Assembly (NCBI GenBank): GCA_964592335.1
Contig: CAZQEU010000002.1
Span: 1 to 53,839, forward strand
DNA from: an uncultured Thermoplasmatales archaeon
GTDB taxonomy: Archaea; Thermoplasmatota; E2; DHVEG-1
Length of the DNA stretch: 53,839 nucleotides
Direction of reading: 5' to 3'
Shown: positions 4,528 to 25,170 of the stretch, in pieces
Layout: each line of letters begins with the position of its first letter
Numbering within the stretch: position 1 is the first letter of the stretch
The notes under the pieces: model-generated
What the model was told of the DNA's origin: nothing
Databases searched by the model: none
What the model saw: only the letters and a program-made list of their open reading frames with translations
Made by a program: the position numbers and the translations under genes

Positions 4528-5973
4528 ATGAAAAATATGAAAAAAATAATTGTTTTGATGATGCTTTCTTTTTTTGTTATATCATCTTTTACAACAATTT
4601 TAAATGCTAGAACTATAAAAAATGATGATTATTCTGATGATGTTTTTGTCTCAGATAATATCAAATATGATTTACTGATAATTACACATCCTAGTTTCTA
4701 CAATGCACTTCAGCCTTTAAAAGATCATAAAATGAACTATGGTGTTAAAACCAAGATAATAACTCTTGATGAGGCATATTCTCTTGGCTCTATGGGTTTT
4801 GATAATCCTGAGAAAATAAAACTTTGTATTGAGAAGTACTACAATCAAGCAGATATAGAATATGTTATGCTTGTCGGAGATTTTAGAAAGATGCCTGTTA
4901 GATATGTATATAATAATGAGCCCGGTGGTTATTATGAGCCACGTTATATATCTGAGCTTTACTACGCGGATTTATATAATGAAACCAGTGTTTTTCAGAC
5001 CTGGGATGAAGACGGAGATGGTGTTTATGGTGAATGGATCATCAATGAGACCAGTGCACGTGATAGATACATTGATCTCAGACCTGATGTTTATGTCGGC
5101 CGGCTTGCCTGTAGAAATATTTTTGAAGTAAAAATTATGGTTGATAAAATAATAAAATATGAGTCAAACACCTATGGTGCTGATTGGTTTGATGATTTTG
5201 TGGTTATTGCAGGTGATACTTATCCTGAAGGTCAATATGATTTTAATACATCAGGTTATGAAGGTGAGGAAAACACTGAGAGTGCAATAGAGAACATGAC
5301 ATCTTTTAACCCTAAAAGGATATGGGTTTCAAATGGGAATTTTACTGGCCCCAAGGATGTAATAAATGTGATAAATAAGGGATGTGGGATAATGTTTTTT
5401 GAAGGACATGCTTCTCCTGGTGCATGGGGTACTCATCCATATAATAGCCATAAATTCATATTTGGTCTTAAAAATACTCATATGTGGAGACTGTTTAATT
5501 TTTATAAACTCCCGGTTGTTGTTGCTGCAGCATGTCATAATGGTATGTTTGATGTAACACCTTTTAATTTTTTGAAAAAACTTGATTTTATTGCTGGTGT
5601 TTATCATCCAGGTGATGAGAGTTTGGAGTGTTGGGCATGGAAGCTTGCCAGCAAACCATTTGGTGGCTCAATTGCAACTATTTCAAATACAGGTCTTGGG
5701 ATGACAAAAGAGGATAAGAAATCACTAGAAGGAGCTGGTGATTATATCGATCAGCAGTTTTTTTATGTCTATGGCAATGGTATGAGTGATATACTTGGTG
5801 AGTGCTGGGGTATGACCATAGATAGATACATTGATGCTTATCCTGTGGACTGGGATATTGATGATAATGATGAGTTTGTTGTTGACATGAAATATGATCT
5901 TAAAACACCTCAGCAGTATATATTGCTGGGTGATCCAAGTCTTAAAATTGGTGGTTATCCACCATTATCTTAA
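4528..5973 (+). CDS. Secreted peptidase C25 (gingipain)-like cysteine protease
   Basis: N-terminal signal/TM segment. LLIITHP...YVMLVGD block. Candidate catalytic His in FFEGHASPG and Cys in VVAAACHNG. Confidence 0.55.
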   Translation: MKNMKKIIVLMMLSFFVISSFTTILNARTIKNDDYSDDVFVSDNIKYDLLIITHPSFYNALQPLKDHKMNYGVKTKIITLDEAYSLGSMGFDNPEKIKLCIEKYYNQADIEYVMLVGDFRKMPVRYVYNNEPGGYYEPRYISELYYADLYNETSVFQTWDEDGDGVYGEWIINETSARDRYIDLRPDVYVGRLACRNIFEVKIMVDKIIKYESNTYGADWFDDFVVIAGDTYPEGQYDFNTSGYEGEENTESAIENMTSFNPKRIWVSNGNFTGPKDVINVINKGCGIMFFEGHASPGAWGTHPYNSHKFIFGLKNTHMWRLFNFYKLPVVVAAACHNGMFDVTPFNFLKKLDFIAGVYHPGDESLECWAWKLASKPFGGSIATISNTGLGMTKEDKKSLEGAGDYIDQQFFYVYGNGMSDILGECWGMTIDRYIDAYPVDWDIDDNDEFVVDMKYDLKTPQQYILLGDPSLKIGGYPPLS

Positions 5974-8920: not shown

Positions 8921-11794
8921 TTGAGCAAGGATAAAGATACTAAAAATAAACTAAAGGAACACAAAAATATCGCTGAAGTTGAACGATTAGTTGACCAGAT
9001 AATAACCAAAAACAGAGAAAAACTAGATGAAGCATATAAAAAAGAAATCCAGTCAAATCGTTTTTCAATAAATAATAAAATCAACTCATCATTCTATCTC
9101 AAGAAAAATAAAGAAAAAAAGAAGAGTCATAAAGGAATTAGCAACAAAATAATCTCCCAAGCAAGAGCAAATCTAGGTGAAAAACCAATAAAAAAAGAGG
9201 CTTTCACACCTCCCTTTGAAACAAAAGAAAGCTTTAAACCAACAGAAAACAAAAACATGAGAAAAGACTCAGTTCAAAAACAAAAAAAAGAGAGCGAAAT
9301 AAAAGATGACACTACTTCTAAAATTCATGATTCAAAAGAGATATTGCAATCAGATGAATTTGAAGAAGTAATATCTGATTTTGAAAAAGAATCAAGCGTA
9401 GATATTAACAATGAAAAAAGCCCTGACTCAAAAATAATTGATGAGAATATAGAAAAAACTGATTTAGAGAAAAAAACAGTTAAAGAAAAAAATCATGCTG
9501 AGGATAAGTTAAAAGAATTAACTAAGAAACGAGGAATTTTTGATAAAAGAAAAGTTGGTTATAAGAGAAAAATTCCAAAAAACAAAAAAGAAACAGATGA
9601 AATCTTTGATGCTTTTTTAGATGATGACTCTTCTAAAATAGATGAAAACCTTAAAAATGATACTGCAGATGAGACAAACGACTCTTCTTTGTCAAATTCT
9701 GATGAAAATATAAAAGAAGAAACAAAAGAAGAGAGAGGAATATTTTTTGGTAGAAAAAACCCGAAGGAGGATAAAAAACATACACATGAAAAACAGCCTT
9801 CATATTCTTTTAAACCACGTTTTCATGTTGAAAATCATCCAGATGATAAAAGAGATTCTGATAGTCTAATTTTAGATGAGAAACTAAAAAATGAGGAAGC
9901 TGTCGTTGAAACTAAAGATGCTTTTGAAAATGTTGAGTTAAAAGCTCAGGAATATGCAAAAAAACACCTAAAAGATAAACCTAAACCTTCTGCAAATCCT
10001 TTTAAAAAAAGTGAAAACAAAAAAAACAATGAACTAAAAAATGAAGACTTTTCACTTGAAAACACAGATAACGATAGTGAGCATGTTTTTTTTGATGAGC
10101 ATGAGGATTCTTCTTTTACTGGTTGGAGCCCAAATATTTCAGACAAACAAAGAAAAGAGATTTTACTTCCAGCAACAGATAAACCTGAAGATAGGCCTGA
10201 ACTTTCACCTGAATCTGCACTTGGGGAAGTAGGTGATGTTGAACTTCCGAAAGAAGTTCTAAGTATGGACTCAGTTAAACTAAGTGATCTTGGTTTTTCT
10301 GAAAACGAATGGGATGAACTTGATTTTTATGCACTCAGTGAACCTTTTGCTTATGTTGAAATACTTCGTGAAAGAGAATCCCTTGAAAAATGTTATTTTT
10401 TGGTAGAAGTGGAGATAACTGAGGAGGAACAAGATACATTAAATTTTATCAGAGATACGCTTCTTAAAATGCATATTGAAACAGAGGATTTAGAAAAAAG
10501 TGGAGACGATGAATATCTTGCCTCCAGAGTAAAAAAAATAATCCAGGAGTATAATCTACAAATATCTGAGGAATCATTAAACAAGGTTCTGTATTATCTT
10601 TCAAAGACTTCTTTGGGGCTGTCAAAAATCGATCCATTGATGAATGATCCAAACATTGAGGATATCAGCTGTGATGGAGCAGATGTTCCTTTATTTTTGT
10701 ATCATCGTAAGTTCGGCTCTTTGAAAAGCAATGTATCATTTGATACTGAAGAAGAACTATCTTCTTTTATTTTTAAACTTGCACAGAAATGTGGTAAACA
10801 TATCAGTATCGCAGAACCAATTTTAGATGCAACTATGCCTGATGGGTCTCGTATTCAGATGACTCTGTCTGATGAGATAACTGCTCGAGGCAGTACTTTT
10901 ACTATCCGTAAATTTAGATCAGATCCTTTCAGCCCACCTGATCTTATAGAGTTTAACACTATGAGCTCTGAGATGGTGGCATATATGTGGCTTGCCATAG
11001 AAAATGGTATCAATATGCTGTTTGCAGGGGGAACAGCATCTGGTAAAACAACAGCTCTTAATGCACTTTCCTTATTTATTCCACCGGAAGCAAAGATTGT
11101 AAGTATTGAAGAAACTCGTGAGATTAATCTGCCTCATTCAAATTGGATACCTGGTGTTAGCCGTAGTGGTTTTGGATCGGTTGTTTCCGATAGGGTTGTA
11201 GGGCAGATTGATATGTATGATCTTATGAAGGCTGCTCTTCGTCAGCGTCCAGAGTATATTATTGTAGGTGAGATTCGTGGTCGTGAGGCATATGTTTTGT
11301 TTCAGGCTATGGCTACAGGTCATGCAACGTATAGCACGGTTCATGCGGATAGTGCCCATTCACTTATTCATCGTCTTGAGGGAAAACCAATTAACATACC
11401 TCGTGTAATGTTACAGTCTCTTGATGTAGTATCTCTTCATGTTACAACAAAAGTTAAAAACAAACGTGCTCGTCGTTGTAAGCAGATAATTGAGATTATT
11501 GATATTGATCCTACCACCAAAGAGATTCTTACAAATGAGGTATTTCGCTGGGATCCAGTTGAAGATAATTTTGTTTACTCTGGTAAAAGCTATGTCCTTG
11601 AGCGTGTTCGTGCTGAAAAAGATATGTCTAGAGAAGAAATAACTAGTGAGATTAAATCTCGTAAGAAACTTGTAGAACTTATGAACAAGAATAATATAAG
11701 AGAATTTAGAGGAGTAGCTCGTATTATTTCAAAATATCTGGATAACCCCTCTAATACATTTTCTATGATGGAGAAAGGTGCTATAAAAGAATGA
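8921..11794 (+). CDS. FlaI/GspE/VirB11-family type IV pilus assembly ATPase with an N-terminal low-complexity extension of about 450 aa
   Basis: Walker A is GGTASGKTT. Walker B is YIIVGEIRG. His box is GHATYSTVHA. The extension is Lys/Glu/Asp/Ser/Asn-rich. TTG start lies 5 nt after AAGGAGAGG. Confidence 0.85.
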   Translation: MSKDKDTKNKLKEHKNIAEVERLVDQIITKNREKLDEAYKKEIQSNRFSINNKINSSFYLKKNKEKKKSHKGISNKIISQARANLGEKPIKKEAFTPPFETKESFKPTENKNMRKDSVQKQKKESEIKDDTTSKIHDSKEILQSDEFEEVISDFEKESSVDINNEKSPDSKIIDENIEKTDLEKKTVKEKNHAEDKLKELTKKRGIFDKRKVGYKRKIPKNKKETDEIFDAFLDDDSSKIDENLKNDTADETNDSSLSNSDENIKEETKEERGIFFGRKNPKEDKKHTHEKQPSYSFKPRFHVENHPDDKRDSDSLILDEKLKNEEAVVETKDAFENVELKAQEYAKKHLKDKPKPSANPFKKSENKKNNELKNEDFSLENTDNDSEHVFFDEHEDSSFTGWSPNISDKQRKEILLPATDKPEDRPELSPESALGEVGDVELPKEVLSMDSVKLSDLGFSENEWDELDFYALSEPFAYVEILRERESLEKCYFLVEVEITEEEQDTLNFIRDTLLKMHIETEDLEKSGDDEYLASRVKKIIQEYNLQISEESLNKVLYYLSKTSLGLSKIDPLMNDPNIEDISCDGADVPLFLYHRKFGSLKSNVSFDTEEELSSFIFKLAQKCGKHISIAEPILDATMPDGSRIQMTLSDEITARGSTFTIRKFRSDPFSPPDLIEFNTMSSEMVAYMWLAIENGINMLFAGGTASGKTTALNALSLFIPPEAKIVSIEETREINLPHSNWIPGVSRSGFGSVVSDRVVGQIDMYDLMKAALRQRPEYIIVGEIRGREAYVLFQAMATGHATYSTVHADSAHSLIHRLEGKPINIPRVMLQSLDVVSLHVTTKVKNKRARRCKQIIEIIDIDPTTKEILTNEVFRWDPVEDNFVYSGKSYVLERVRAEKDMSREEITSEIKSRKKLVELMNKNNIREFRGVARIISKYLDNPSNTFSMMEKGAIKE

Positions 11795-13665
11795 GTAAAA
11801 AAGTTGCTATTTGCCCGGGTTGTCATACAAAAATAGATGTTGAAGGTGAACCTGGTCAAAAAGTAGAAGTTAAATGCCCAAGCTGCGGTAAAACCGGTAA
11901 TATCAGCTTTAAGGCTGAGCTCGATCAACTTGATTTTTATCCATTAAAAGAACCTTATGCCTATGCAAAAATTTTAAAAAACTCAGATACTCTTGAGAAA
12001 TTTTACAAAATAATTGAGCCTTATTTATCAGATGAAGAACAAAAAAAACTTAATTTCATCTGGGAGACACTAATGAAAACTTTCAGTATGAGGTTAGATG
12101 AACTTGACACAAAAAAAGCAGAGAGTTATCTTAATGAACAGGTTGAAAAGGTTATTGCTAACTATGAGATGGATGTAGATGAGGTTACTAAAAAGAAAAT
12201 TTTGTACTATATTAAACGTGAGTCATTAGGCTATGGAAAAATCGATCCTTTAATGCTTGATCCAAATATTGAGGATATTAGCTGTGATGGGCAGAATGTT
12301 CCAATATTTTTATATCATCGTAAATATGGTTCACTTAGAAGTAATATCGAATTTGGTAATGAAGAAGAGTTATCTTATTTTGTAGTTCGTCTTGCACAGA
12401 AATGTGGCAAACATATCAGTATCGCAGAGCCTATGCTTGATGCTACAATGCCTGATGGGTCTCGTATTCAGATGACTCTGAGCAGCGAGGTTACAACAAA
12501 AGGCTCTACTTTTACTATCCGTAAATTCCGCGCTGATCCTTTTACACCTCCTGATCTTATAGCACTCAACACTGTTTCATCTGAGATAATGGCGTATTTC
12601 TGGCTTGCAGTTGAAAATCGTGTAAATGCACTTATTGCAGGGGGAACAGCTTCAGGTAAAACAACGATTCTTAACGCTCTTTCATTGTTTATCCCACGTG
12701 ATGCAAAGATTGTAAGTATTGAAGAAACTCGTGAGATTAATCTACCTCATCCTAACTGGATACCTGGTGTTAGCCGTAGTGGTTTTGGAGAAATAGTCGC
12801 AGATAAGATGGTAGGCGAAATTGATTTATATGATCTTATGAAGGCTGCTCTTCGTCAGCGTCCTGAGTATATTATTGTAGGTGAGATTCGTGGTCGTGAA
12901 GCATATGTTTTGTTTCAAGCTATGGCTACAGGTCATGCAACGTATAGCACGGTTCATGCTGATAGTGCAAAAAGCCTTATTCATCGTCTTGAGGGAAAAC
13001 CAATTGATATACCAAGGATAATGTTGCAGTCTCTTGATGTAGTATCTATTCATATTACAACCCGTGTTAAAGGTAAAAGAGTACGTCGTTGTAAGCAGAT
13101 AATTGAGATTATTGATATTGATCCTACCACCAAAGAGATTCTTACAAATGAGGTATTTCGCTGGGATCCATTTGAGGATAAATTCATATACACCGGAAAA
13201 AGCTATGTTTTGGAAGGAATACGTGCTCGTTGGGATATTGGTAAAGAAGAGATTACTAAAGAGATTAGACAACGTGCAGAAATACTTGAATGGATGAAAG
13301 ATACAAATGTTAGAACCTTTTTAGAGGTTGCCAAGGCTATATCACGTTATGTTGATAACCCTGAGGATTTTTTGAAAAAACTAAGAAAAACTAAGAAAAA
13401 TAATAAAAAAACAAAACAAAAAAATAATAATACAAAGAAAACTAAGGATGAAAATAAAAAGGAGATATATAGTTCTGAGGATACTAAATCTGATTTAACT
13501 GTTTTGAATAGTGTTAATAAAAAAACTGCAGAGAAACTATATGAAAATAAGATTGAGACCGTTCAGGATTTAAAGAAACACTCAATTTCAGAATTAAGTA
13601 CTATGGGATTGAAAAAAGGAGAGGCAAAAAAGATAAAGAAAGAAATAAATAAGAGATATAAATAA
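11791..13665 (+). CDS. FlaI/GspE-family pilus ATPase paralogue with an N-terminal zinc ribbon and a C-terminal Lys-rich + helix-hairpin-helix-like tail
   Basis: CPGC-x17-CPSC at the N-terminus. Same Walker/His boxes as the upstream paralogue. The tail is KKxxK-rich followed by VNKKTAEKLYENKIETVQDL...ELSTMGLKKGEAKKI. Confidence 0.85.
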   Translation: MSKKVAICPGCHTKIDVEGEPGQKVEVKCPSCGKTGNISFKAELDQLDFYPLKEPYAYAKILKNSDTLEKFYKIIEPYLSDEEQKKLNFIWETLMKTFSMRLDELDTKKAESYLNEQVEKVIANYEMDVDEVTKKKILYYIKRESLGYGKIDPLMLDPNIEDISCDGQNVPIFLYHRKYGSLRSNIEFGNEEELSYFVVRLAQKCGKHISIAEPMLDATMPDGSRIQMTLSSEVTTKGSTFTIRKFRADPFTPPDLIALNTVSSEIMAYFWLAVENRVNALIAGGTASGKTTILNALSLFIPRDAKIVSIEETREINLPHPNWIPGVSRSGFGEIVADKMVGEIDLYDLMKAALRQRPEYIIVGEIRGREAYVLFQAMATGHATYSTVHADSAKSLIHRLEGKPIDIPRIMLQSLDVVSIHITTRVKGKRVRRCKQIIEIIDIDPTTKEILTNEVFRWDPFEDKFIYTGKSYVLEGIRARWDIGKEEITKEIRQRAEILEWMKDTNVRTFLEVAKAISRYVDNPEDFLKKLRKTKKNNKKTKQKNNNTKKTKDENKKEIYSSEDTKSDLTVLNSVNKKTAEKLYENKIETVQDLKKHSISELSTMGLKKGEAKKIKKEINKRYK

Positions 13666-13711: not shown

Positions 13712-14581
13712 GTGAGGAGAATGCCGCTTAATAATTATGAGAAGTTATGCTATAGATGGTTTGGAAGATCAGCTGAAAATATAGCCTCAGACAGACTAAA
13801 AAGAGCTTTAGAGAGGGCACATATGGATATGCGTGCTGGAGCTTATCTTTCTTGGGTCTGGGTAAATACGATACTTGCAGCTCTTATTTCAACTGTTGTA
13901 ATTTTAAGTCTGATAGCTTTTTTAAACCTGGTTTTAGTTATTATAGTACTACTTTTATTTGCTCCTATTTTTGCAACTATTCTTACTTATTTCTATCTTA
14001 TGAATCTACCAGCTTCAAAAGCAAAAGCCCGTGGTAAAAAGATAGATATGCACTTGCCTTATGCACTAAATTTTATCTCTGCGATGAGCTCTGCAGGTAT
14101 TACTCCTACTGAAATATTTAAAAGCCTTTCTAAACAAAAGATATATGGTGAGATACGTGAAGAAGCTCTTTGGATTTATAGAGATGTTAGTCTTTTAGGT
14201 AGGGATATAATATCTGCTATTAAATCAAATATTGACCGAACGCCTTCTGAAAAATTTAAAGAGTTTCTGCAGGGTGCAATTGTTACAGTTCAGTCAGGCG
14301 GTGCTTTAAAACCTTATTTTATGACAAAAGCAGATCAATACACTCGTGAGAACCGTGTTGTACAAAAACAACTTATAGAAAGTCTTGGTATTATGGCAGA
14401 AGCATATGTTACTGCAGCTGTTGCAGGTGTTCTACTAATCATAATCATTCTTCCTTTGCTCATGATAATGTCTGGTGGTAAAGACCAGTTAATTATTATA
14501 TATGTCTTTGTCCTCTTGGTTGTACCTCTTATTCATTTTAGTTTTTCTTATGTTTTGTCTTCAATGTCATCTAGGGTGTGA
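13712..14581 (+). CDS. Pilus platform membrane protein with a single T2SSF domain (TadB/FlaJ N-half-like)
   Basis: TM segments flank a cytoplasmic T2SSF-like domain (LPYALNFISAMSSAGITPTEIFKSL...GRDIISAI). GTG start, or ATG at 13721. Confidence 0.75.
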   Translation: MRRMPLNNYEKLCYRWFGRSAENIASDRLKRALERAHMDMRAGAYLSWVWVNTILAALISTVVILSLIAFLNLVLVIIVLLLFAPIFATILTYFYLMNLPASKAKARGKKIDMHLPYALNFISAMSSAGITPTEIFKSLSKQKIYGEIREEALWIYRDVSLLGRDIISAIKSNIDRTPSEKFKEFLQGAIVTVQSGGALKPYFMTKADQYTRENRVVQKQLIESLGIMAEAYVTAAVAGVLLIIIILPLLMIMSGGKDQLIIIYVFVLLVVPLIHFSFSYVLSSMSSRV

Positions 14582-15546
14582 TAAAAGTGGCCGATAATAA
14601 AAGTAAAAATAGTGAAATGAAAAAACAGGGTTTTCTGAAAAGATTGTCTATGACTGGGCAGATGTCAAGATTTATTGTTTATCTTGCGGCAGGGATACCA
14701 TCTATTATCTGTATTTTTCTTGCGATACTTTCTCTTACATCTTTTTTGAATTATACAGAATTTACTTTTGGTGATAGTACTATAAAACTTTTTACTTGGT
14801 ATGACTTCATTATCTTTGCACTTATTATTTTTACTGGTGTTTATGGGATATATGAATGGTTTAGATTACGTCGCGTTCGTATGATTGATAAACGTTTTCC
14901 TGATTTTGTACGTGATCTTGCTGAATCTAGACGTGCAGGTATGACTTTTACTAAGGCTATTATGTACTCGGCAAAGGGAAACTATGGTGTGCTTACAGAT
15001 GAAATTAAAAAGATTTCTATGCAGATATCATGGGGAAATAGTGTTGAGAATGCACTAAGGGCTTTTGCAAAAAGAGTTAAAACCAAGCTTGTTATTCGTA
15101 CTATTTCACTTATAATTGAGGCTAGTAGAAGTGGAGGAAATGTTGCTGATGTTTTAGATGCAGCTAGTAAAGATGCACGTGAAATTAAACTCTTGGATTC
15201 AGAGCGACGTGCAAGTATGCTTTCATATGTTGCAGTAATATATGTTGCTATGTTTGTTTTTCTACTTATTATGATAGTTCTTTCAAAGAGTCTAATACCA
15301 AACATGGTAGGTGAAGGCGCAGCTGGATTAAAATCAGCGGGGGCCCTAGGAGGATCTTCGGGTAACCAAATTTCTCAGGATGAAATAACACAGCTTTTCT
15401 TTATAGCAAGTATCATCCAGGGTGGTTTCATGGGTATTGTTGCTGGTGTTTTTGAAGAAGGAAATGTTATCTCTGGAGTAAAACATGCGTTCTTTATGAT
15501 ACTTATCAATTGGATTGCATTGAAATTCATAGTAGGTGGAGTGTGA
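14578..15546 (+). CDS. Pilus platform membrane protein with a single T2SSF domain (TadC/FlaJ C-half-like)
   Basis: FPDFVRDLAESRRAGMTFTKAI...GNSVENALRAFAKR... plus TM segments. GTGA overlap with the upstream gene. Confidence 0.75.
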   Translation: MIKVADNKSKNSEMKKQGFLKRLSMTGQMSRFIVYLAAGIPSIICIFLAILSLTSFLNYTEFTFGDSTIKLFTWYDFIIFALIIFTGVYGIYEWFRLRRVRMIDKRFPDFVRDLAESRRAGMTFTKAIMYSAKGNYGVLTDEIKKISMQISWGNSVENALRAFAKRVKTKLVIRTISLIIEASRSGGNVADVLDAASKDAREIKLLDSERRASMLSYVAVIYVAMFVFLLIMIVLSKSLIPNMVGEGAAGLKSAGALGGSSGNQISQDEITQLFFIASIIQGGFMGIVAGVFEEGNVISGVKHAFFMILINWIALKFIVGGV

Positions 15547-15578: not shown

Positions 15579-18500
15579 TTGAATAAATCAAATGCTGTAA
15601 GTTCAGTTATTTCTTTATTTCTTGTTTTAATGATAGTTTCAACTACTACCGCTTCTGTTTTTTTATGGGGCCTGCCAGCAATTGACAGTATGAAAGCAGA
15701 TTCCAATAATAGAAAAATGGCTGAGAAATTTGAAGATTTTCATGAAACCGTAAATCAAGTTATTTCAAGTGGTACAAGTGCCTATGTTACTGAGCGTATG
15801 TCAATTGAAGAAGGATCCCTTGAGATTGATTCAGAAGGAGACAGATTGGTTACGTGGTATTCATACGATCCTGATTGGGATTTTAATGTATCTGGTCTTG
15901 AACCAGGCGATGGAAACAAGAAGGATATTTCGATAGATATTACTGATTCTCCAGGCGGTGCGGGATGTAATAAACGTGATTTTTATTGGCTTAATGAGAC
16001 TTGTTTTCTAGCTGGGACGAAGGTTTTGATGGCAAATGGAATGAGTAAAAACATCGAAGACATTAAACCTGGTGATCTAGTAAAGTCGTATGACTTTGAT
16101 AATAAAAAAATGGTAGACTCAGAGGTTGCATATCATCATGAACACTTAGCTGAGGAGATGGGAGGTTATTATCTAGTTATAAACAACAATTTATGTGTTA
16201 CGCCTAACCATAGGTTTTACACCAAAAATGGATTGGTGCAGGCTGGTAACCTAGAGGTTAAGGACAAAATATTTTCAAATGTACAAGGTACATATTGCCC
16301 TGTAAGTTCCATAAAAAAAGTATATTGCCCTAGTAAAACCTATGATCTATCAATTAAGAATCTCAATAATTACTATGTAAAATCCAATGATAAATTTTTA
16401 CTGGTACACAATGCTGGAGTAGATATAGAGCTAACTGTAGAAGAAGACATTGAATTGCAGAACCTTGAAATTGACTCCTACGGTTCCTTCATCAAATTTA
16501 ATATAAATCCGTTATATGAGCTAGGAGAAATAAATATTATTGATGCTAGACTGGAGTTATATGTTAAAGATAAGGGTGGATGGGAGCCTGTAATTTTGGT
16601 TAGCGGTGGTGGAGAGAAATGGACAGATAGTTCGGACACAGAGATAATCCAAGGTATGATTGATCCATCACAGTCATCTGTTAAACCTATCTCTATTGAA
16701 AGGTTTGATGGTGAACCTAAGAGATGGTGGCAGGCAGCAGGTATTGAAGATCTAATCATAGAAGATTATAACGCCGTAAGCGAATCGTGTTCCTTAAAAA
16801 TAGAACACCCAGGTTTCCCGTTGGATGAAATTAACGATTACACTAACAACGAGTTAATATCTATTGGTAGTCTAGCTAAATCAATTTTTATAAGATTTTT
16901 ATCCCAAGAAGTAGAACCAGACTTTTGGCCAAAATTAGTTGTTACTTATGAAACCGGCTCTTCAAATAATCCTCCAACAACCACTATTTATGACATTCCA
17001 GATCAAGTGGAGCCTACACAGCTATCTATTATATGTGGTAATGCATCCGATACTGATGGTACAATCGCAGGCGTCTACCTGAATATCCATGATGATACAG
17101 AAGACCTCTATTGGTGTGGATCATCCTGGAGTGGTACGTGTTCACCATTGCCTTCTGGTTGCTCTATGATACTTTCCGCTATGGCAAGGGATGGAAGTTT
17201 TAATGAGGAATATGAGGAATGGAATTATCTCTCTAGTAGTGTTAGTTGGACTAATGGTAATCAATATACGATAACTGCTAAGGCTAAGGATGATGATGGA
17301 GACTGTGATACCGATGGTGCAAGTGATACTTTTGTTTATGTAGAGGGTAATAGTCCTCCTGATACAGGTGTTGAAGATTTTCCTGAAAATGCTGGTCCAG
17401 AACATGTTTCTGAGATTACGGGTACTTCTTTGGATACTGATGGTACAGTTGCTGGTGTTTATTTAAGGATATATGACAGAACCAATGGCAATTATTGGAC
17501 GGGTAGCGGATGGAATTCTTTTGGGGGTGTTGTACCAGGTCAATGTAGCTATGAACTTTCCGCTGTGGCTTCTGATGGTAATGGTTTTAACAGCGGTGAT
17601 GAGGATTGGTTGTATGATTGTGAAGCTGAGGGTGTTACCTGGACTTCTGGGCATGAGTACACGGTTTATGCTAAGGCTAAGGATGATGATGGAGCTTGTG
17701 ATACCGATGGTGCAAGTGATACTTTTGTTTATGTAGAGGGTAATAGTCCTCCTGATACAGGTGTTGAAGATTTTCCTGAAAATGCTGGTCCAGAACATGT
17801 TTCTGAGATTACGGGTACTTCTTTGGATACTGATGGTACAGTTGCTGGTGTTTATTTAAGGATATATGACAGAACCAATGGCAATTATTGGACGGGTAGC
17901 GGATGGAATTCTTTTGGGGGTGTTGTACCAGGTCAATGTAGCTATGAACTTTCCGCTGTGGCTTCTGATGGTAATGGTTTTAACAGCGGTGATGAGGATT
18001 GGTTGTATGATTGTGAAGCTGAGGGTGTTACCTGGACTTCTGGGCATGAGTACACGGTTTATGCTAAGGCTAAGGATGATGATGGAGCTTGTGATACCGA
18101 TGGTGCAAGTGATACTTTTGTTTATGTAGAGGGTAATAGTCCTCCTGATACACCTTCTAATCCTGATCCTGAGAGTGATGCTGTTGATGAGAGTATAGAT
18201 GTGGAGTTATCTTGGACTGCTAGTGATCCTGATAGTAATTATGCTACTTCAGCGGTTTATTTTTCTGATCCAGCTGAGCCTGGTGATGATGAATCTGAAG
18301 CTGAGACTATAAATAATTTAGAGGATAGGATCAATTCAGATGATAATGATCAAAATACTAGTTCTAATTCGTTTGATCCAGGGGTATTAGAGTATAATAA
18401 GAAGTATTTTTGGAAGATAATCGTTTGGGATGATAAAGGGTTGAGTACTGAGGGTCCTATTTGGAATTTCACTACCGAATCAGATCCTGTGGTGAATAAT

Positions 18501-19817
18501 CCTCCTGAGATTACATATCATTATCCTGTTAATGGCTCCATCGATATTCCTGCATCTCCTACTTGTAAGGTAACTGTTTATGATGATGATAGGGATGATG
18601 TAATAAGGGTAGTTATTAAAAGCAAGCCTGAGGGTGGTTCTTGGTCTGATCCTCAGTATGATAGTACGCATTCAAGTGGTGATACAATTTCTTGGGATTA
18701 CACAAGCGCAGATGGCTCAAGTGGTGTGTTTACATATTATTGGCTTGTAACTTTAACTGATCCAAACGATGAATCTATATCTATAGAAGAAGTTTATCAT
18801 TTTACGATTTCATTGGATCCGATAGTTACTGATATTTCAGAGCCATGGGATATTAGCATGGATTATTTATCCTATTATAATGATACTGATTATGATTTTT
18901 ATGCTTCTGCATCAACACCTCATAATTTTGATATTTACTTTAACTTTTCATGGGGTGATGGAACTTCCTCAGGATGGTTGCTAGAATCTGCTGTATCTCC
19001 AGGTTCCTGTTCTGCTACACATCAGTGGTTAAATGCTGGTGTGTACCCTGTAAAAGTACAGGTTGCAAGTGACCCTGATGATGATGGCCATGGAGGTACA
19101 GGAAATAGCGATGATGCTTTTTATAGTGGTTGGACTGATCCAGTTTTTATTAAAATAGAAAACACAGTTATGGTTCCTTGTGATATTGCAATTGATGAAG
19201 CCGGTAACCCGAAGTTACATTCGGATGCTGGCTCAGGAAATGTACCTTATAATCTGGAAGGAATTGTTAGAATCGATTTATACAGTAATGATTACCCTGA
19301 TTCAAGTGACTATGGCTCAGATGTTTCAGGCAGGATTCCTTTCGGGCAAATCTGGATTTTTGATTTAGGAAAAATAACTCAAACTTATCGGGGAGCTGAG
19401 GATATATACAAAACAATTTTTGAAAATGGTGGCATAATAAGCTCAAAATCAGAATATCATTCAATGACTGAAAATTCAAATATATATAATTACAGCTCTT
19501 ATCTTGTATTCAAGTTAAATCTTGTTAGAGGTATCAACTCGATTTCAGGTAGTGGAAGCGGTATATTCAAGCTAAAACTTAAAATCAATAATAGCTATAT
19601 TAGAAATGAGCAAAACAGGATGTCCTCTAATTTAAAAGTTCAAATGTTTGGGGATTACAAAGAAGTCTGGTATGATTTTTTGACTAGTCCACTTCGCAGT
19701 TATAATTTCCAAGAGTATTCTTCAAATTCAGATATATTGCTTTATGATGAGGGTAGGTCAACTCGTTTGATACTTTCAAGCAATGTGTTAATTGCGTCTA
19801 TCTCAGGAGTGTTATAA
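15579..19817 (+). CDS. Giant (1412 aa) pilin-like surface protein: class III signal/pilin N-terminus, Hint domain, three 131-aa Ig-like repeats, FN3-like and PKD-like modules, conserved C-terminal pilin-core half
   Basis: N-terminus is MNKSNAVSSVISLFLVLMIVSTTTASVFLWG (PF07790-like). Hint blocks are CFLAGTKVLM / VTPNH / LLVHN. The WGDG motif is PKD-like. TTG start follows GAGGGGGG. Confidence 0.8.
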   Translation: MNKSNAVSSVISLFLVLMIVSTTTASVFLWGLPAIDSMKADSNNRKMAEKFEDFHETVNQVISSGTSAYVTERMSIEEGSLEIDSEGDRLVTWYSYDPDWDFNVSGLEPGDGNKKDISIDITDSPGGAGCNKRDFYWLNETCFLAGTKVLMANGMSKNIEDIKPGDLVKSYDFDNKKMVDSEVAYHHEHLAEEMGGYYLVINNNLCVTPNHRFYTKNGLVQAGNLEVKDKIFSNVQGTYCPVSSIKKVYCPSKTYDLSIKNLNNYYVKSNDKFLLVHNAGVDIELTVEEDIELQNLEIDSYGSFIKFNINPLYELGEINIIDARLELYVKDKGGWEPVILVSGGGEKWTDSSDTEIIQGMIDPSQSSVKPISIERFDGEPKRWWQAAGIEDLIIEDYNAVSESCSLKIEHPGFPLDEINDYTNNELISIGSLAKSIFIRFLSQEVEPDFWPKLVVTYETGSSNNPPTTTIYDIPDQVEPTQLSIICGNASDTDGTIAGVYLNIHDDTEDLYWCGSSWSGTCSPLPSGCSMILSAMARDGSFNEEYEEWNYLSSSVSWTNGNQYTITAKAKDDDGDCDTDGASDTFVYVEGNSPPDTGVEDFPENAGPEHVSEITGTSLDTDGTVAGVYLRIYDRTNGNYWTGSGWNSFGGVVPGQCSYELSAVASDGNGFNSGDEDWLYDCEAEGVTWTSGHEYTVYAKAKDDDGACDTDGASDTFVYVEGNSPPDTGVEDFPENAGPEHVSEITGTSLDTDGTVAGVYLRIYDRTNGNYWTGSGWNSFGGVVPGQCSYELSAVASDGNGFNSGDEDWLYDCEAEGVTWTSGHEYTVYAKAKDDDGACDTDGASDTFVYVEGNSPPDTPSNPDPESDAVDESIDVELSWTASDPDSNYATSAVYFSDPAEPGDDESEAETINNLEDRINSDDNDQNTSSNSFDPGVLEYNKKYFWKIIVWDDKGLSTEGPIWNFTTESDPVVNNPPEITYHYPVNGSIDIPASPTCKVTVYDDDRDDVIRVVIKSKPEGGSWSDPQYDSTHSSGDTISWDYTSADGSSGVFTYYWLVTLTDPNDESISIEEVYHFTISLDPIVTDISEPWDISMDYLSYYNDTDYDFYASASTPHNFDIYFNFSWGDGTSSGWLLESAVSPGSCSATHQWLNAGVYPVKVQVASDPDDDGHGGTGNSDDAFYSGWTDPVFIKIENTVMVPCDIAIDEAGNPKLHSDAGSGNVPYNLEGIVRIDLYSNDYPDSSDYGSDVSGRIPFGQIWIFDLGKITQTYRGAEDIYKTIFENGGIISSKSEYHSMTENSNIYNYSSYLVFKLNLVRGINSISGSGSGIFKLKLKINNSYIRNEQNRMSSNLKVQMFGDYKEVWYDFLTSPLRSYNFQEYSSNSDILLYDEGRSTRLILSSNVLIASISGVL
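16002..16412 (+). other. Hint (intein/Hedgehog-type) domain, 137 aa, Cys142 to Asn278 of the 1412-aa protein
   Basis: Block A is C-FLAGTKVLMANG. Block B is VTPNH. Blocks F/G are TYDLSI...FLLVHN. The +1 residue after Asn is Ala, not Cys/Ser/Thr. There is no endonuclease insert. Confidence 0.8.
17277..18152 (+). repeat. In-frame tandem repeat with a 393-bp period; 17304-18152 is nucleotide-perfect (about 2.16 copies), and a diverged copy lies upstream
   Basis: Compared block by block at offset 393 (e.g. 17341-17520 vs 17734-17913, and 17641-17700 vs 18034-18093). The antisense ORFs 17473..17736 and 17866..18129 in the track are identical. Confidence 0.95.
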
Positions 19818-19826
19818 TAAGATACA

Positions 19827-22739
19827 ATGATAAAAACAAATATATTTAAAAGCAACATAGCTGTAAGCCAGGTTTTATCGACGATATTAGTGTTATCTAT
19901 AGTTCTATCCTGTGTTGCTGGAATTATGGCTTGGGGGGTTCCTTATATTGAAGAAAATAAAATGAAAAGCCAAAGGGAGACTATTTTTAGTAACTTTGAG
20001 GTTTTTGACAATACTATTGCTAATTTACTGGTAGATGGCCCTAATTCAGCTGACACAGGAGTTATATCAAGCAATGTTGATGAAGGTGCTATTAATATTA
20101 ACTCGTTTGATTATTTCGTTGAGGGTTCTACAGACAGATTGGTTCTTTGGTATTCATATCATAATGGGACTAATTTTACAGTAGAAGGTTTAGATGATGC
20201 TGATGATACTTTTAGTGTGATGCCTACAGGATCAGATTTGGTTTTTGGTGATTGGGCATATGAAAGCTATTCTCTTAGAAAAAAATTAACTATCAATAGT
20301 GAATATGTCGATGAGGATCTATCAAATTTTCCGGTTCTTGTTAGATCAACGGTATTTACTGCAACAGATGATAATAAGGATATTATATTTGCAGATGAGT
20401 CTGGTACAAAACTTGATTATGAAATTGAAAGTTTAGACGAGGGTTCCGGTTATTTAATTGCGTGGGTAAATATACCTTATGTTTCTTCAACAGAAGATAC
20501 TGTCTTTTATCTTTATTCTAATAATGCAGAGGAAGACGATCCTCAAGAAAACTCAGAAGCTGTTTGGGATTCAGATTATATATTGGTCCACCACTTTGAA
20601 GAAACAGCAACTACTACAGTTGATGATTCTACATCTAATCAGAATGATGGTAACTTTTATGGTTTAACAGACATGTTTCGTCTTTTTTATATTAATGGAG
20701 CATTAGATTTTAATGGATCTAGTAACTATATTGATCTAGGTGATATCTCTGTTTTAGATAGCGTTGATGATTTAACTATTGAAACATTGATATTCCCAAG
20801 ACAGGAAACATATTCGGATAGTACCTCTTTAGTTGGACAAGTTAATTATTCTAATCCTAATCTATTTGGCAAATGCTGGCTTACATTAGATACAGGACTA
20901 AAGTGGGGATTTACAATAGATCCCTCAGCAGGTGATCCAAGAACTTATTGGGCCGATACATCCATTCAAAATTCTTCCTTTCAATATTTAGTTACAACTT
21001 TTGATGATAAAGGTGGTTCAGATGGTTCTTTAAACTTTTATCTAGATGGTGAATCAGATGGATCAAATGATAATATTGAAAAAGATTTAACATCAAGCGA
21101 TGAGGATTGGAAAGTAGGCTGGAATGGCAATATCTTTTTTAATGGTACATTAGATGAGATTAGAATTTCAAAGACTATCCGTGATCCATCATGGATAAAA
21201 GCAAACTACAACAATTTATTCAAGTACGATTTCGTTGAACAAGGATATGCTGTTAATCAAGGAGGAGCGCTTTTCATAGATGATGCATCAATCTATCATC
21301 TCGATCCCGGGAAAGAAGAAGATATAGATACCAAAACTTATGTTTCTATATATGATACTTATAAATATTCTCAATCTTTTAAATGCCCTTTTGAAAATGA
21401 CGAACTTGACAAAATAAAATTGTATATCGGAAAAGTAGGAAATATCTATGATAGTCTAACTGTGTCGATATATGGTGATTCTGGTGGATCCCCTGACCCA
21501 ACTGACAATTTAGGCTCTTTTGAGATTTACTCTGATAATGTTTCAACAACTATGGATTGGGTAGAATGTGATTTTTACCAAGATATTCCTCTTTTGCAAG
21601 ATACTACCTATCACATAGTGGTAAACACTAGTAGCTCTACTGGGTCTTCAGGATTTTATAAATGGCGTTATGAAAATCCTTCTGTCTATGAGGACGGATA
21701 TGCAAAATATTATGATGGATTTAATTGGGTTTATATAGAAAGTGATGATGAGTATGACTTATACAAACGTATTGTTTATAAAAACTATGATAGTCCCTCT
21801 GCTCCAAAGATAAGCGGAAGTATTCCAATACGTTCTAATCCCTATGGTTATTCGGGGGTTAAATATAATTTTTTGTTAAACAACGAAGATATGTTTGGTG
21901 ATAACTATTGGTATAAAGCCGATTGGGGTGATGGAACTACAACTGGCTGGTGTGAATCAGGAACCACTTTTTATACAAATCATACTTGGACAAAAACAGG
22001 GTTGTTTAACCCTGTGTTTAAAATTAGAAAGAAGATAGACAGTACCGATGTTTTTATTGAAAATGAGTTTGATAATGAAACGTTGTCTAATCTTTATATT
22101 CATGAAGGTATTTCATCACCTGTTAATATTTTAGATTATGGAAATCCTCAAATAACAGATGGCAGTATAATTACAACAAATATTAACTTAAATGGAACTG
22201 TATTAATCAACTTATTTAATGATGCATATCCAGCTGAATTTGGTCCACAATATATGGGAAAGATACCATTTGCTAGGATATGGGTCTTTGATCTTGGATC
22301 TATTGAATATACAGTACCATCTATTTCAGGTGTAAATACTGTTTCTCTTCAAAATGGTGCGGTTTTATCAAATGGTTTTTCTGGTTTTTCTAATAGTTTT
22401 ATAAAAAATGAACCAGCTTTTGTGGAAACAGATAAGGCTATTGCTTTACGATTGATACAAACAAAGGGTATTGGAGCTATGGCTGGTTCCGGAAGATATA
22501 AGATAAATGTCGTTCATAAAGCGTCTTATAATTGTGAAAAACCAACGCTTTATTTTGTCGATAATGTATCAAATTTTAAGATGCAGTTTTCCGGTTCAAA
22601 TTCAGACATATGGCTAAATTATTTTTTAGATAATTATGATTTTGGAATACAGGGTGATACCTTATTTTATAAGCACAATGAAAGAATATTGCTTCTCGAC
22701 AATTCTCTTTTTGAATATTATGTGGGGGGGATTTATTGA
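19827..22739 (+). CDS. Giant (970 aa) pilin-like surface protein with DUF2341 + LamG (concanavalin-like lectin) + PKD-like insert
   Basis: N-terminus is NIAVSQVLSTILVLSIVLSCVAGIMAW. DUF2341 is LRKKLTINSEYV..LSNFPVLV..DIIFADESGTKLDYEIES...AWVNIPYV...FYLYSNN. LamG is LDFNGSSNYIDLGD...LDEIRISKTIRDPSWIKANYNN. A WGDG motif is present. Confidence 0.8.
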   Translation: MIKTNIFKSNIAVSQVLSTILVLSIVLSCVAGIMAWGVPYIEENKMKSQRETIFSNFEVFDNTIANLLVDGPNSADTGVISSNVDEGAININSFDYFVEGSTDRLVLWYSYHNGTNFTVEGLDDADDTFSVMPTGSDLVFGDWAYESYSLRKKLTINSEYVDEDLSNFPVLVRSTVFTATDDNKDIIFADESGTKLDYEIESLDEGSGYLIAWVNIPYVSSTEDTVFYLYSNNAEEDDPQENSEAVWDSDYILVHHFEETATTTVDDSTSNQNDGNFYGLTDMFRLFYINGALDFNGSSNYIDLGDISVLDSVDDLTIETLIFPRQETYSDSTSLVGQVNYSNPNLFGKCWLTLDTGLKWGFTIDPSAGDPRTYWADTSIQNSSFQYLVTTFDDKGGSDGSLNFYLDGESDGSNDNIEKDLTSSDEDWKVGWNGNIFFNGTLDEIRISKTIRDPSWIKANYNNLFKYDFVEQGYAVNQGGALFIDDASIYHLDPGKEEDIDTKTYVSIYDTYKYSQSFKCPFENDELDKIKLYIGKVGNIYDSLTVSIYGDSGGSPDPTDNLGSFEIYSDNVSTTMDWVECDFYQDIPLLQDTTYHIVVNTSSSTGSSGFYKWRYENPSVYEDGYAKYYDGFNWVYIESDDEYDLYKRIVYKNYDSPSAPKISGSIPIRSNPYGYSGVKYNFLLNNEDMFGDNYWYKADWGDGTTTGWCESGTTFYTNHTWTKTGLFNPVFKIRKKIDSTDVFIENEFDNETLSNLYIHEGISSPVNILDYGNPQITDGSIITTNINLNGTVLINLFNDAYPAEFGPQYMGKIPFARIWVFDLGSIEYTVPSISGVNTVSLQNGAVLSNGFSGFSNSFIKNEPAFVETDKAIALRLIQTKGIGAMAGSGRYKINVVHKASYNCEKPTLYFVDNVSNFKMQFSGSNSDIWLNYFLDNYDFGIQGDTLFYKHNERILLLDNSLFEYYVGGIY

Positions 22740-24700
22740 AAAAGATTTTTAGTAATTCTTTGGCTGTTTCACAGGTCGTGGGTTTTATTTTATCTCTTTC
22801 ACTTATGAGTCTTGTTGCGACTTCTTCAATTCTTGTTGTAAATACTATAATCGATGAAAAAACTTCTTCAGCAGCAGAGATTCATGCTAGGGATATTGCA
22901 AATAAAATTTCAGATGCAATTATTAATGTTTGTTTATTTAAGGAGAATTATCCATCTGCTAATTATTCAACTACGGTTGATATTCCATATCAATTAATTG
23001 ATTATTTTAATTACTATATTGAGCTAAATAATAACTTTGTATTTATTAATTCCACAGATGGTTTAGTAAATGTGAAAAACTCGCTTTATAATTGCTCGGG
23101 TAGGATTGGCTGGGATATACAAGGTAGAGTAGATGGTGCAGACAAGTTGGTTATTAGTTGTAACAGCAGTAATTATGTTTATAAATTTGATTTTGGAACC
23201 AGCAATTCATCAAGTGCAAAGGGTTATACTAGAATATCTGAGAATTGTGATAACTCGGTTTGGTATACTACTTCAGGGGTTTGGAAATATAGAGTACCTA
23301 TTTTTGTTTCTAATCCTTTAAGTGAGCCGATAGATGATTATGCAGTTCTAATTCAGCTCAAAGATAAAAATTTTAATCATATATTAGTAAATGAGAACTT
23401 AAGTGATATTAGGTTTTTTGATGATGCTGGCTCTGAGCTTTACTACTGGATTGAAAACTGGTATTCAGATACTACAAAAACTTCAAGGATTTGGGTAAAT
23501 GTGTCATCGATACCTGTTGATGGATGTATGATACATATGTATTTTGGGAGATCTGCAGATAGTAGTAATCAGTATCATGATGGATCGAAAACATTTTTGT
23601 TTTTCGATAACTTTAGTAAAAATACTATGAATAAATGGGATCTTTACTATTATAACGCTGATTCTAGGATAAATATCATGGATGGTAGTCTAGTTTTAAA
23701 AAATGGTGCTGCAGTTATTTCAAAAACATATATCAATCCAGATAGTACACCTTACATACTCGAAACAAAATCAAAATCAATAAGTGAAACAGAAATTGGA
23801 CAAGGTTATGATAATCCAATAGAAGCTAGTATTTTTGCAAGAAAAACAAATGGCTCTTTTAACCCACCTTATCATCATGCTTCTGTTTTTTCTTCAGGAA
23901 CATTCGAATATCGTCCAACTGATGCTCATTATTTTGATAATGCAATTGTATATTATCAAGATGGTAAGTGGAACAATTATACTGATTATGAAACACAAGG
24001 TATAAATCAAGGATGGTATAGGCTAAAATACATATTAAATCACTCAGATGATGTGGCTGCAAGGTATTTTTATGATAACTTTGTTCTAGATGGAGAACCA
24101 AAATCTATTTCATACCGTGGTACAAAAGATGGAGCGTTTGGTCTTTGCATAGCAAATACTGAATATATTGATGAGGATTTTAATATCACAGCATATTATG
24201 ATTGGATTTTTGCAAGAAAATTCGTGTCAAATCCTAATGCTGTTTCTAGTAGGGAAGAATCAGAACCTATTGCATATGTTGGCGCGGTTCAATCAGAGGA
24301 TTATGGATGGGATACTGCTTCTGATAATATTTTATCAAAATCATCAGGTGGAACAGGAGTTGGAGATGATTTAGTGTATAGTAATGATAATAATGTTCAT
24401 TTCGAAGTTAATAATCTATCTGATTCTAAATATTATAGCATATTTTTTACAATAGGTGATTATGATACTCCACAAGATATAGAGGGTATGTCTATTGATA
24501 TTACTCATTCTGAAGGTACTGAATTATTAAGCTTTTCAGATTGTTCTGAAAACATACCTCATAAAAAACGTTGGATTTCAAATCTACAAACAGCTTCAGG
24601 AGATTTTATCTTTAGTTTTTCAAGCAGTAATAAATGGGCTATAAATGAAATAACAATAATGGAAGGAGAAAGAATTATATGGCTAGAAGGAAAAAATTAA
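22736..24700 (+). CDS. Pilin-like surface protein (654 aa) with DUF2341 and a concanavalin-like domain
   Basis: N-terminus is NSLAVSQVVGFILSLSLMSLVATSS. DUF2341 is WKYRVPIFVSN...DIRFFDDAGSELYYWIENW...IWVNVSSIP...MYFG, followed by LFFDNF...KWDL. TTG start follows GGGGGGG and overlaps the previous stop. Confidence 0.75.
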   Translation: MKKIFSNSLAVSQVVGFILSLSLMSLVATSSILVVNTIIDEKTSSAAEIHARDIANKISDAIINVCLFKENYPSANYSTTVDIPYQLIDYFNYYIELNNNFVFINSTDGLVNVKNSLYNCSGRIGWDIQGRVDGADKLVISCNSSNYVYKFDFGTSNSSSAKGYTRISENCDNSVWYTTSGVWKYRVPIFVSNPLSEPIDDYAVLIQLKDKNFNHILVNENLSDIRFFDDAGSELYYWIENWYSDTTKTSRIWVNVSSIPVDGCMIHMYFGRSADSSNQYHDGSKTFLFFDNFSKNTMNKWDLYYYNADSRINIMDGSLVLKNGAAVISKTYINPDSTPYILETKSKSISETEIGQGYDNPIEASIFARKTNGSFNPPYHHASVFSSGTFEYRPTDAHYFDNAIVYYQDGKWNNYTDYETQGINQGWYRLKYILNHSDDVAARYFYDNFVLDGEPKSISYRGTKDGAFGLCIANTEYIDEDFNITAYYDWIFARKFVSNPNAVSSREESEPIAYVGAVQSEDYGWDTASDNILSKSSGGTGVGDDLVYSNDNNVHFEVNNLSDSKYYSIFFTIGDYDTPQDIEGMSIDITHSEGTELLSFSDCSENIPHKKRWISNLQTASGDFIFSFSSSNKWAINEITIMEGERIIWLEGKN

Positions 24701-25170
24701 TTTCAACTAATAATGGTCAAATGCATGTCATGGAGGCAGTTATAGTTGCAGGTTTAATTTTTTCAGCTTTATTTTTTATAAGTAATATGGAAGTTTCTAG
24801 TTATACTACAATTGAAAAGCAAAATAAGCTAAAGCAGTTAGGTGCAAAAATATTAGAAAACGCTGAGGCAAAAGAAGATTCTACTGGAAACTATGATAAT
24901 TTTTTAATTTATTGTGTAGAAGAGAATATAAATTATTTGTATTATGATCTGGTTTCAAGCTTGCCAGAAGGTACTTTGTTTCGTTTGACAGTTGTAAATA
25001 TGTCTAAATTGTTTCATGATAATTCTGCATCTTATAATGATTGTATTTATACCAGTATTGGAACTGATATATGGGTTGATGAAGAAACAAGGGTTTCAAG
25101 AATTATAGCTTTTAATGGTTTTATCTATGAGATTGTATTGCAACTGTGGCTTAATACGGGAGGTGATTAA
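24679..25170 (+). CDS. Small pilin-like protein (163 aa) with a class III signal peptide
   Basis: MARRKKLISTNNGQMHVMEAVIVAGLIFSALFFI has a basic N-region, a G-Q junction, Glu, then a hydrophobic helix (PF04021-like). GGAAGGAG lies upstream. Confidence 0.65.
   Translation: MARRKKLISTNNGQMHVMEAVIVAGLIFSALFFISNMEVSSYTTIEKQNKLKQLGAKILENAEAKEDSTGNYDNFLIYCVEENINYLYYDLVSSLPEGTLFRLTVVNMSKLFHDNSASYNDCIYTSIGTDIWVDEETRVSRIIAFNGFIYEIVLQLWLNTGGD

Follow-up and report, generated by a model that had tools for sequence, protein, structure and literature searches.

A Hint domain of the bacterial intein-like type at the module junction of a putative archaeal type IV pilin-like protein

Autoprocessing by Hint and bacterial intein-like (BIL) domains is known from secreted bacterial toxins and adhesins, from Hedgehog proteins and from inteins, of which the canonical class 1 members need a Cys, Ser or Thr directly after the intein (the +1 position) to form a branched intermediate. 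A-type BIL domains were reportedly described by Amitai et al. in 2003 and by Dassa et al. in 2004. These domains end in His-Asn (HN) without a +1 nucleophile and combine an N-terminal thioester with C-terminal Asn cyclization; they can ligate by aminolysis, yet cleavage products dominate (PMC4031507). BIL domains reside in hypervariable regions of non-conserved proteins (PMC7765530). Here, we analyze a 53,839-nucleotide stretch of DNA (contig CAZQEU010000002.1 of assembly GCA_964592335.1, hereafter the window), identify a Hint domain within a large pilin-like precursor encoded next to type IV pilus genes, and examine its relatives, the conservation of its catalytic residues and the kind of processing it might carry out.

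The Hint domain is encoded at positions 16002-16412 of the forward strand, 137 codons without a stop that lie in frame within the open reading frame (ORF) 15579-19817 and read CFLAGTKVLM...VTPNH...FLLVHN. An initial annotation, made from the sequence alone, had placed the hallmarks at Cys142, TPNH, H277-N278 and the following Ala279, and translation reproduces this numbering exactly. Its call of a Hint domain is likewise borne out by profile searches. With the whole protein as query, the Pfam family PT-HINT (PF07591) matched residues 151-279 over profile positions 4-137 of 137 (E 7.4e-10, 39.6 bits against a cut-off of 27.7), reaching E 2e-11 when the Hint domain alone was used, and Hint (PF01079) scored 29.9 bits against a cut-off of 29.7 while covering profile positions 11-102 of 213. 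Intein_splicing, Hom_end_hint and Vint matched the protein below their Pfam cut-offs, and the NCBIfam model TIGR01445 (intein_Nterm) scored slightly under its own. The best sequence match in the PDB was 2LWY, the BIL domain of Clostridium thermocellum, which phmmer aligned end to end, including VLVHN, at E 1.9e-9. PT-HINT is also matched by 16 of the 23 family members in a 23-sequence alignment. These results confirm that the window encodes a genuine Hint domain, with codon-exact coordinates and a match far beyond chance.

For structural comparison we used an AlphaFold2 model of a homolog (P0003, ~40% identical) as a stand-in for the window protein; its Hint part, modeled from a 4-sequence alignment, has a predicted local distance difference test (pLDDT) score of 75-91. 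The top Foldseek match of this Hint was the Tetrahymena domain BIL2 (6y75, E 2.5e-10, 26% identity), and 2lwy, fifth by E-value, gave the highest target-normalized template modeling (TM) score, 0.86. TM-scores ranged from 0.74 to 0.86 for BIL domains and from 0.65 to 0.78 for mini-inteins, with DnaB and RecA next after the BIL domains, whereas Hedgehog (1at0) ranked far lower at E 6.7e-5. By sequence, by modeled structure and by motif pattern, the domain is an A-type BIL or PT-HINT-like Hint. The initial annotation had offered BIL and Hedgehog-type processing side by side; BIL and PT-HINT domains are indeed the closest relatives, and with its HN retained and its weaker match to 1at0 the domain stands nearer to A-type BIL than to Hedgehog.

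Like the A-type BIL domain 2LWY, the domain spans ~137 amino acids (aa) with an N-terminal Cys, a TxxH motif, a C-terminal HN, no +1 nucleophile and no endonuclease, and it too lies in the variable region of a non-conserved and here probably exported protein. It is unlike A-type BIL domains in having an archaeal, Thermoplasmatota-like host in place of a bacterial one, and in residing in a type IV pilin-like protein at a module junction that is the same throughout a large family, several members of which can occur in one operon. The PT-HINT domain of bacterial polymorphic toxins, its best Pfam match, is likewise an extracellular autoproteolytic module, one that parts a delivery part from a payload (Zhang et al. 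2012, PMC3482391), but here the Hint sits near the N terminus, before the payload, and a conserved structural module ends the protein. Pfam found no toxin domain downstream of the Hint, where repeats precede this C-terminal module, and the next gene encodes a pilin-like paralog, not an immunity protein; lacking both, the protein does not fit the polymorphic toxin reading, which we rejected. Export would here go through archaeal type IV pilus machinery, a route missing from those named for toxins that bear HINT (PMC3482391).

The BIL2 domain of Tetrahymena BUBL (6Y75/6TMM), the top structural match, uses its N-terminal thioester productively, but it conjugates a ubiquitin-like N-extein to lysines in a eukaryotic cell (PMC8616854), and the window protein has no ubiquitin-like domain. 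Hedgehog proteins share the Hint fold, Cys1 and TxxH, and thioester cleavage at the N-terminal Hint junction of a secreted protein; they lack the terminal HN and carry a cholesterol-recruiting sterol-recognition region, in contrast to the HN present here. A Hedgehog/Hog-type Hint was therefore rejected on the presence of HN, the lack of a sterol- or adduct-recognition region downstream in the Pfam scan and the weaker structural match. Class 1 mini-inteins such as Ssp DnaB and Mtu RecA share the fold, Cys1, TxxH and HN and are the next-best structural matches after the BIL domains, but they differ in residing in conserved cytoplasmic enzymes rather than in a variable secreted host, and the +1 residue here is Ala. 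A canonical class 1 intein was rejected given Ala279, the lack of +1 enrichment in the family and the insertion in a junction loop of a variable surface protein.

In full-text searches, whose coverage excludes most subscription journals, we found no report of Hint, intein or BIL domains in pilins or archaeal type IV filaments, and a survey of type IV filament systems in archaea, dated 2026, makes no mention of such domains. As far as we could find, the features that are apparently new are an archaeal host, a carrier of the pilin-like kind, a junction position that is fixed, and Hint domains recurring across one pilus operon, with up to four Hint-bearing proteins in a single operon. An active domain would mean that the large proteins associated with these pili in abundant uncultured archaea mature by cutting themselves once exported, and subunit composition and the architecture of tips and adhesins would need to be modeled differently. 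Protein engineering would also gain from the family a set of compact, nucleophile-independent Hint domains that are naturally extracellular.

To describe the host protein we built local profile hidden Markov models (HMMs) for three parts: N (the first ~140 aa), H (the Hint) and C (the last ~180 aa). The N module opens with a charged leader, MNKSNA, followed by a class III signal-like hydrophobic segment, VSSVISLFLVLMIV, so that the N terminus reads MNKSNA/VSSVISLFLVLMIVSTTTASVFLWG, and continues in beta strands up to FYWLNET. Pfam DUF7289 reaches 21 bits on residues 6-87 against a cut-off of 27; in relatives it scores 27.4-35 bits and exceeds the cut-off in 13 of 23 members, and Pilin_N (PF07790) matches the homolog P0003 weakly (E 0.51). 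AlphaFold2 models of relatives predict a long N-terminal helix at residues 10-67 and 13-66. In keeping with the initial annotation, local HMMs and the alignment place the Hint right after this conserved pilin-like module of ~140 aa. We interpret the protein as an archaeal type IV pilin-like protein, on its sequence features, with putative prepilin-peptidase cleavage and putative filament assembly; it would be exported by way of its class III signal-like N terminus and the neighboring pilus machinery.

The initial annotation had described this protein as a pilin head with over 1100 aa of adhesin behind it, a layout that does not hold. Its last ~185 aa form a conserved C module, and in every complete protein of the loci N and C modules co-occur, whether or not a Hint is present. 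Hint-less N-C paralogs include the protein encoded at 19827-22739 of the window, a 338-aa protein of another locus (L016) that is little more than N fused to C, and a 330-aa protein (P0129); in some Hint-less paralogs other inserts occupy the same N/C junction. An AlphaFold2 model of P0129, which consists of N and C only, built from a 23-sequence alignment, has a mean pLDDT of 84.5 and a predicted TM-score (pTM) of 0.80 and combines a long N-terminal helix with beta structure contributed by the two halves. Confidence is lowest at residues 141-160, a stretch that comes just after WLNDS (140-144) and corresponds exactly to the Hint and insert site of the relatives. Foldseek found no significant structural neighbor of this model in the PDB. 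The N and C modules are thus predicted to form one packed unit, with the Hint and the insert in the junction loop. Because the C module always accompanies N, Hint-less N-C proteins exist, and the pair is modeled as a unit, the protein is better described as a carrier with a junction-loop insert than as a head with an adhesin behind it; a cut would therefore leave the loop nicked or opened, without necessarily shedding the rest.

The insert itself gave no confident Pfam domain over residues 279-1227, where only weak Ig/PKD-like signals were seen, and an adhesin role for it is plausible. It carries a 393-bp tandem repeat (17276-18152; 2.2 copies, 99% identical, 131-aa unit) that may be a recent duplication, or may have arisen when the assembly collapsed or expanded the sequence. 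On the other side of the Hint, the N module ends in W-L-N-[DE]-[TS] (15990-16001 and relatives), an N-x-S/T sequon directly before the predicted scissile bond, and this sequon occurs in Hint-less paralogs as well. We considered a conserved Thr at position -1 as a requirement of the Hint and rejected it: WLND[TS] is also found in members without a Hint, and the -1 Thr therefore belongs to the N module, that is, to the carrier.

Conservation was assessed over 61 complete representatives with N-H-C architecture and an N-adjacent Hint, mutually at most 50% identical. Cys1 is present in 60 of 61 (the other has a gap) and in 72 of the 73 N-adjacent Hints overall, and T67 and H70 of block B are each found in 61 of 61. 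This near-invariance of Cys1 and TxxH indicates strong selection on the chemistry of the N-terminal acyl shift. The terminal HN is kept in 51 of 61 (~84%), and C-terminal Asn cyclization is therefore usually, though not always, retained; the remaining 10 have other endings, an example being a subfamily that reads ...YFADGFLV[KR]SD at this point and keeps Cys1 and TPNH. By mean pairwise identity the Hint is the best-conserved part of these proteins, at 48% compared with 29% for N and 27% for C. At the +1 position (n=58) we counted Ala 11 times, Asp 10, Pro 8, Ser 6, Gln 4, Gly 4, Thr 4 and Glu 3, with a few others and no Cys. Ser or Thr thus occurs in 10 of 58 (17%), matching the background Ser, Thr and Cys content of these proteins (17.7%), and the +1 nucleophile is therefore under no selection. 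The HN-less YFADGFLV[KR]SD proteins are the first pilin-like genes of their loci (L007, L013, L014 and L015), and in three of these (L007, L014 and L015) a semi-conserved segment, V.SS.GVS.MS.AP..L..LG, follows the Hint.

A genome scan placed the fusion of head and Hint (query residues ~3-280) in ~16 loci, all in metagenome-assembled genomes of Thermoplasmatota, Thermoplasmata or Thermoplasmatales. Four close homologs, 39-45% identical, share the layout of the window protein and carry Q, E, E and S at +1. An exhaustive profile search with the full-length alignment as query over 1.84 billion protein representatives returned 509 at E<=1e-30, Hint-less N-C and multi-Hint relatives among them. Among the best 150 of these 509, tallied with the local HMMs, 68 have the architecture N-H-C, 10 have N-H (mostly truncated), 11 have N-C, five have N-H-H(-H)-C and 56 have others, mostly multi-Hint proteins without N that contain up to seven Hints. 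The Hint begins at the residue right after the end of N in most members and abuts N in most N-H-C proteins; some carry it midway through the insert, and in four (P0034, P0053, P0101 and P0131) it stands ~35-40 aa ahead of the C module. One protein (P0014) has a Hint directly after N that ends in HS rather than HN and a second Hint abutting C. Hint relatives from candidate phyla radiation bacteria, Woesearchaeota, Elusimicrobia and actinobacteria were considered as further pilin fusions and rejected as unrelated non-pilin proteins.

Starting from the identity and position of the domain, the conservation of its catalytic residues, the lack of conservation at +1, the co-occurrence of N and C and their predicted unit, we favor, at somewhat better than even chances, an active autoprocessing Hint of the A-type BIL/PT-HINT kind in the junction loop, one that would open the chain by BIL-type autoproteolysis without splicing. 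The precursor would be exported through its class III signal-like N terminus by the adjacent type IV pilus machinery, and the Hint would fold outside the cell. Cys142 would then attack the Thr141 carbonyl, with T208 and H211 assisting the N-S acyl shift, and the resulting Thr141 thioester would be resolved mainly by hydrolysis, while cyclization of Asn278 would cut the Asn278-Ala279 bond. The net outcome would be a chain broken at Thr141-Cys142 and at Asn278-Ala279, from which the Hint has been cut out and whose ends are scarcely rejoined, if at all. The N module (~140 aa) would stay in the membrane or filament, and the insert would be held only through the C module, itself packed non-covalently on N, so that a closed loop of ~950 aa would become a free-ended arm. 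What we infer is that the domain is catalytically active, that it acts outside the cell, that it cleaves instead of ligating or transferring, and that the fragments stay together non-covalently. Chain breaking is favored over seamless splicing because Hints occur at either or both junctions, because several sites may occur in one protein, and because HN-less members exist.

Several observations weigh against this reading. The predicted packing of N on C draws on the pTM and pLDDT of one model from a 23-sequence alignment, and the N-H-C model of P0003, from a 4-sequence alignment, is confident in the Hint only. Where block F usually has His, the window protein has Asn263 (LNNYYV); the position is His in 46 and Asn in 9 of the 61 relatives, and this substitution might weaken Asn278 cyclization and with it C-terminal cleavage. 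Divergence of the Hint correlates weakly with that of N and C (Spearman 0.15, against 0.58 for N with C), a pattern compatible with some exchange of Hints between genes. The assembly of these large proteins into filaments stays conjectural, and the HN kept by most members is a residue pair that aminolytic splicing of the BIL type would need too.

Such splicing would begin with the same Cys142 thioester and Asn278 cyclization, after which the freed Ala279 amino group would attack, so that the Hint would be lost and a continuous N-insert-C chain left behind; the Hint would then be a self-removing passenger or a maturation timer. It could draw on the HN of those 51 relatives, on the ability of type A BIL domains to splice without a +1 nucleophile (PMC4031507) and on the Hint-less paralogs, whose continuous N-insert-C chains are evidently functional. 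The initial annotation had called ligation impossible; canonical class 1 splicing is indeed excluded by Ala279 and the unconserved +1 position, but the wording was too strong for type A BIL domains, which can ligate by aminolysis. We nonetheless consider splicing unlikely, for characterized A-type BIL domains mostly cleave (PMC4031507), ~16% of the orthologous Hints lack HN while keeping Cys1 and TxxH, +1 is unconserved and is Pro in 8 of 58, and variable Hint positions between N and C, with up to seven Hints per protein, fit cutting better than seamless removal. An improbable course of another kind, also raised in the initial annotation and lacking specific support, is transfer, in which the Thr141 thioester would be resolved by a Lys of another pilus protein, by a glycan or by a lipid, attaching the N module covalently, as happens between Hedgehog and cholesterol or in the conjugation carried out by Tetrahymena BUBL. 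No part of the Hint is better conserved than its N-terminal chemistry, which survives the loss of HN, a semi-conserved segment follows the Hint in one HN-less subfamily, and Tetrahymena BIL2, the top structural neighbor, links its N-extein to Lys through isopeptide bonds (PMC8616854). However, at 26% identity the likeness to BIL2 amounts to general Hint/BIL similarity, neither the N nor the C module has an invariant Lys or other obvious acceptor, and Pfam detected no region resembling a sterol-recognition or adduct-recruiting one.

Cleavage at Thr141-Cys142 might instead, as the initial annotation had it, free everything downstream of the anchored head, making the pilus machinery a secretion route for the insert. 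The cleavage site does lie directly after the anchor module, and in P0014 the two Hints, after N (ending in HS) and abutting C, could free the insert entirely; we judge complete shedding quite unlikely all the same, given that the conserved C module is always paired with N, that the pair is predicted as a packed unit to which the downstream part would likely stay bound, and that N and C divergence are correlated (Spearman 0.58). Least probable by far, in our estimate, is a mini-intein that is selfish or in decay, or else a structural domain that is catalytically dead, in either case without a role for the host. Its weak coupling to host-module divergence would suit such an element, as would a pair of adjacent paralogs in one locus (L012, 6750-8504 and 8503-10491) whose Hints share 72% identity but whose N and C modules share only 32-33%, suggesting that one paralog acquired its Hint from the other by copying or gene conversion. 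Against this stand the absence of a homing endonuclease and of the +1 nucleophile that a true intein needs, the location in a variable junction of a secreted protein rather than at a conserved site of a cytoplasmic enzyme, and catalytic residues that are near-invariant at no more than 50% identity in what is the best-conserved part of the protein.

Beyond autoproteolytic opening of the loop, we tentatively raise a broader view, rather doubtful as it stands, in which the type IV pilus machinery of uncultured Thermoplasmatota serves as a display and release system: cargo domains inserted in the loop of the N and C carrier would have their fate after export set by the placement of the Hint, whether behind N, ahead of C, inside the insert or close to both junctions. 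Cargo could be left tethered by one end, cut up or released, and thioester-mediated covalent attachment would also be possible. A self-processing pilin-cargo system of this kind would have no described counterpart. Several representatives (P0008, P0018, P0026, P0106 and others) carry two to seven Hints per chain, some back to back (...AVHN/KNPD/CFLPGT...), and the sequences of such multi-Hint chains suggest polyprotein-like self-fragmentation of secreted precursors.

The gene encoding the window protein is the fifth in a same-strand block and the first of six whose products have a short charged leader and a hydrophobic N terminus (Table 1). On sequence evidence the locus is a chromosomal type IV pilus-like operon of a Thermoplasmatota-like archaeon: the archaeal markers S19e, L31e and eIF-6 are encoded downstream of the operon, and the GC content is ~33%. 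No peptidase A24 gene was found among the window ORFs scanned by Pfam, a scan that covered about two thirds of the ORFs of at least 150 aa.

Table 1. Positions in the window of the Hint-bearing protein, its parts and the other genes of the operon
Feature	Positions	Strand	Basis or remark
T2SSE-family ATPase	8921..11794	+	Pfam; PilB-like, upstream of the Hint-bearing gene
T2SSE-family ATPase	11791..13665	+	Pfam; PilB-like
T2SSF platform protein	13712..14581	+	Pfam; PilC-like
T2SSF platform protein	14578..15546	+	Pfam; PilC-like, directly upstream of the Hint-bearing gene
Hint-bearing ORF, 1412 aa, TTG start, pilin-like precursor (N module, Hint, variable insert, C module)	15579..19817	+	Local HMMs
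N module, residues 1-141	15579..16001	+	N HMM E 2e-47; Pfam DUF7289 below cut-off
Hint domain, BIL A-type/PT-HINT type, residues 142-278	16002..16412	+	No endonuclease insert
Cys142, Hint position 1	16002..16004	+	Predicted nucleophile, N-S acyl shift at the Thr141-Cys142 bond
Block B TPNH, T208-H211	16200..16211	+	Motif
Terminal His277-Asn278, then Ala279 (+1)	16407..16415	+	LLVHN/AGVDIEL
Variable insert, residues 279-1227 (~950 aa)	16413..19259	+	Weak Ig/PKD-like signals
C module, residues ~1228-1412 (last ~185 aa)	19260..19817	+	C HMM E 4e-58
Hint-less paralog, 970 aa, with DUF7289 and a DUF2341 and Laminin_G_3 insert at the N/C junction	19827..22739	+	N 8-141, C 792-971
Pilin-like gene, DUF7266 and DUF2341	22736..24700	+	Synteny with L001
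Pilin-like gene, DUF7288	24679..25170	+	Synteny with L001
Pilin-like gene, 138 aa	25215..25631	+	Synteny with L001
Last operon gene, 778 aa: hydrophobic N terminus, PKD domains, second Hint, conserved ~140-aa tail	25868..28204	+	

The last gene of the operon encodes a second Hint at ~27365-27763, reading NP/CFLAGSKILM...TPNH...VIAIN/G, which lacks the penultimate His, matches PT-HINT at E 2.6e-11 and is ~37% identical to the Hint at 16002-16412 (51 identities over 139 columns). The same gene order is found in a syntenic locus (L001; GCA_964391965.1, contig CAYMOC010000033.1, 6973-17857), where the pilus operon encodes four proteins with a Hint (1003, 508, 360 and 660 aa), those of 360 and 660 aa ending in VSN/V and VSN/A. 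The ~140-aa tail of the protein encoded at 25868-28204 resembles the tail of the 360-aa Hint protein of that locus. Among the pilus machinery genes of the window, the ATPase at 8921-11794 is unusually long (957 aa), and its first ~600 aa have no Pfam match. About 3 kb upstream of the operon, at 4528-5973, lies a gene for a gingipain-like Peptidase_C25 protein of 481 aa (E 3.9e-56).

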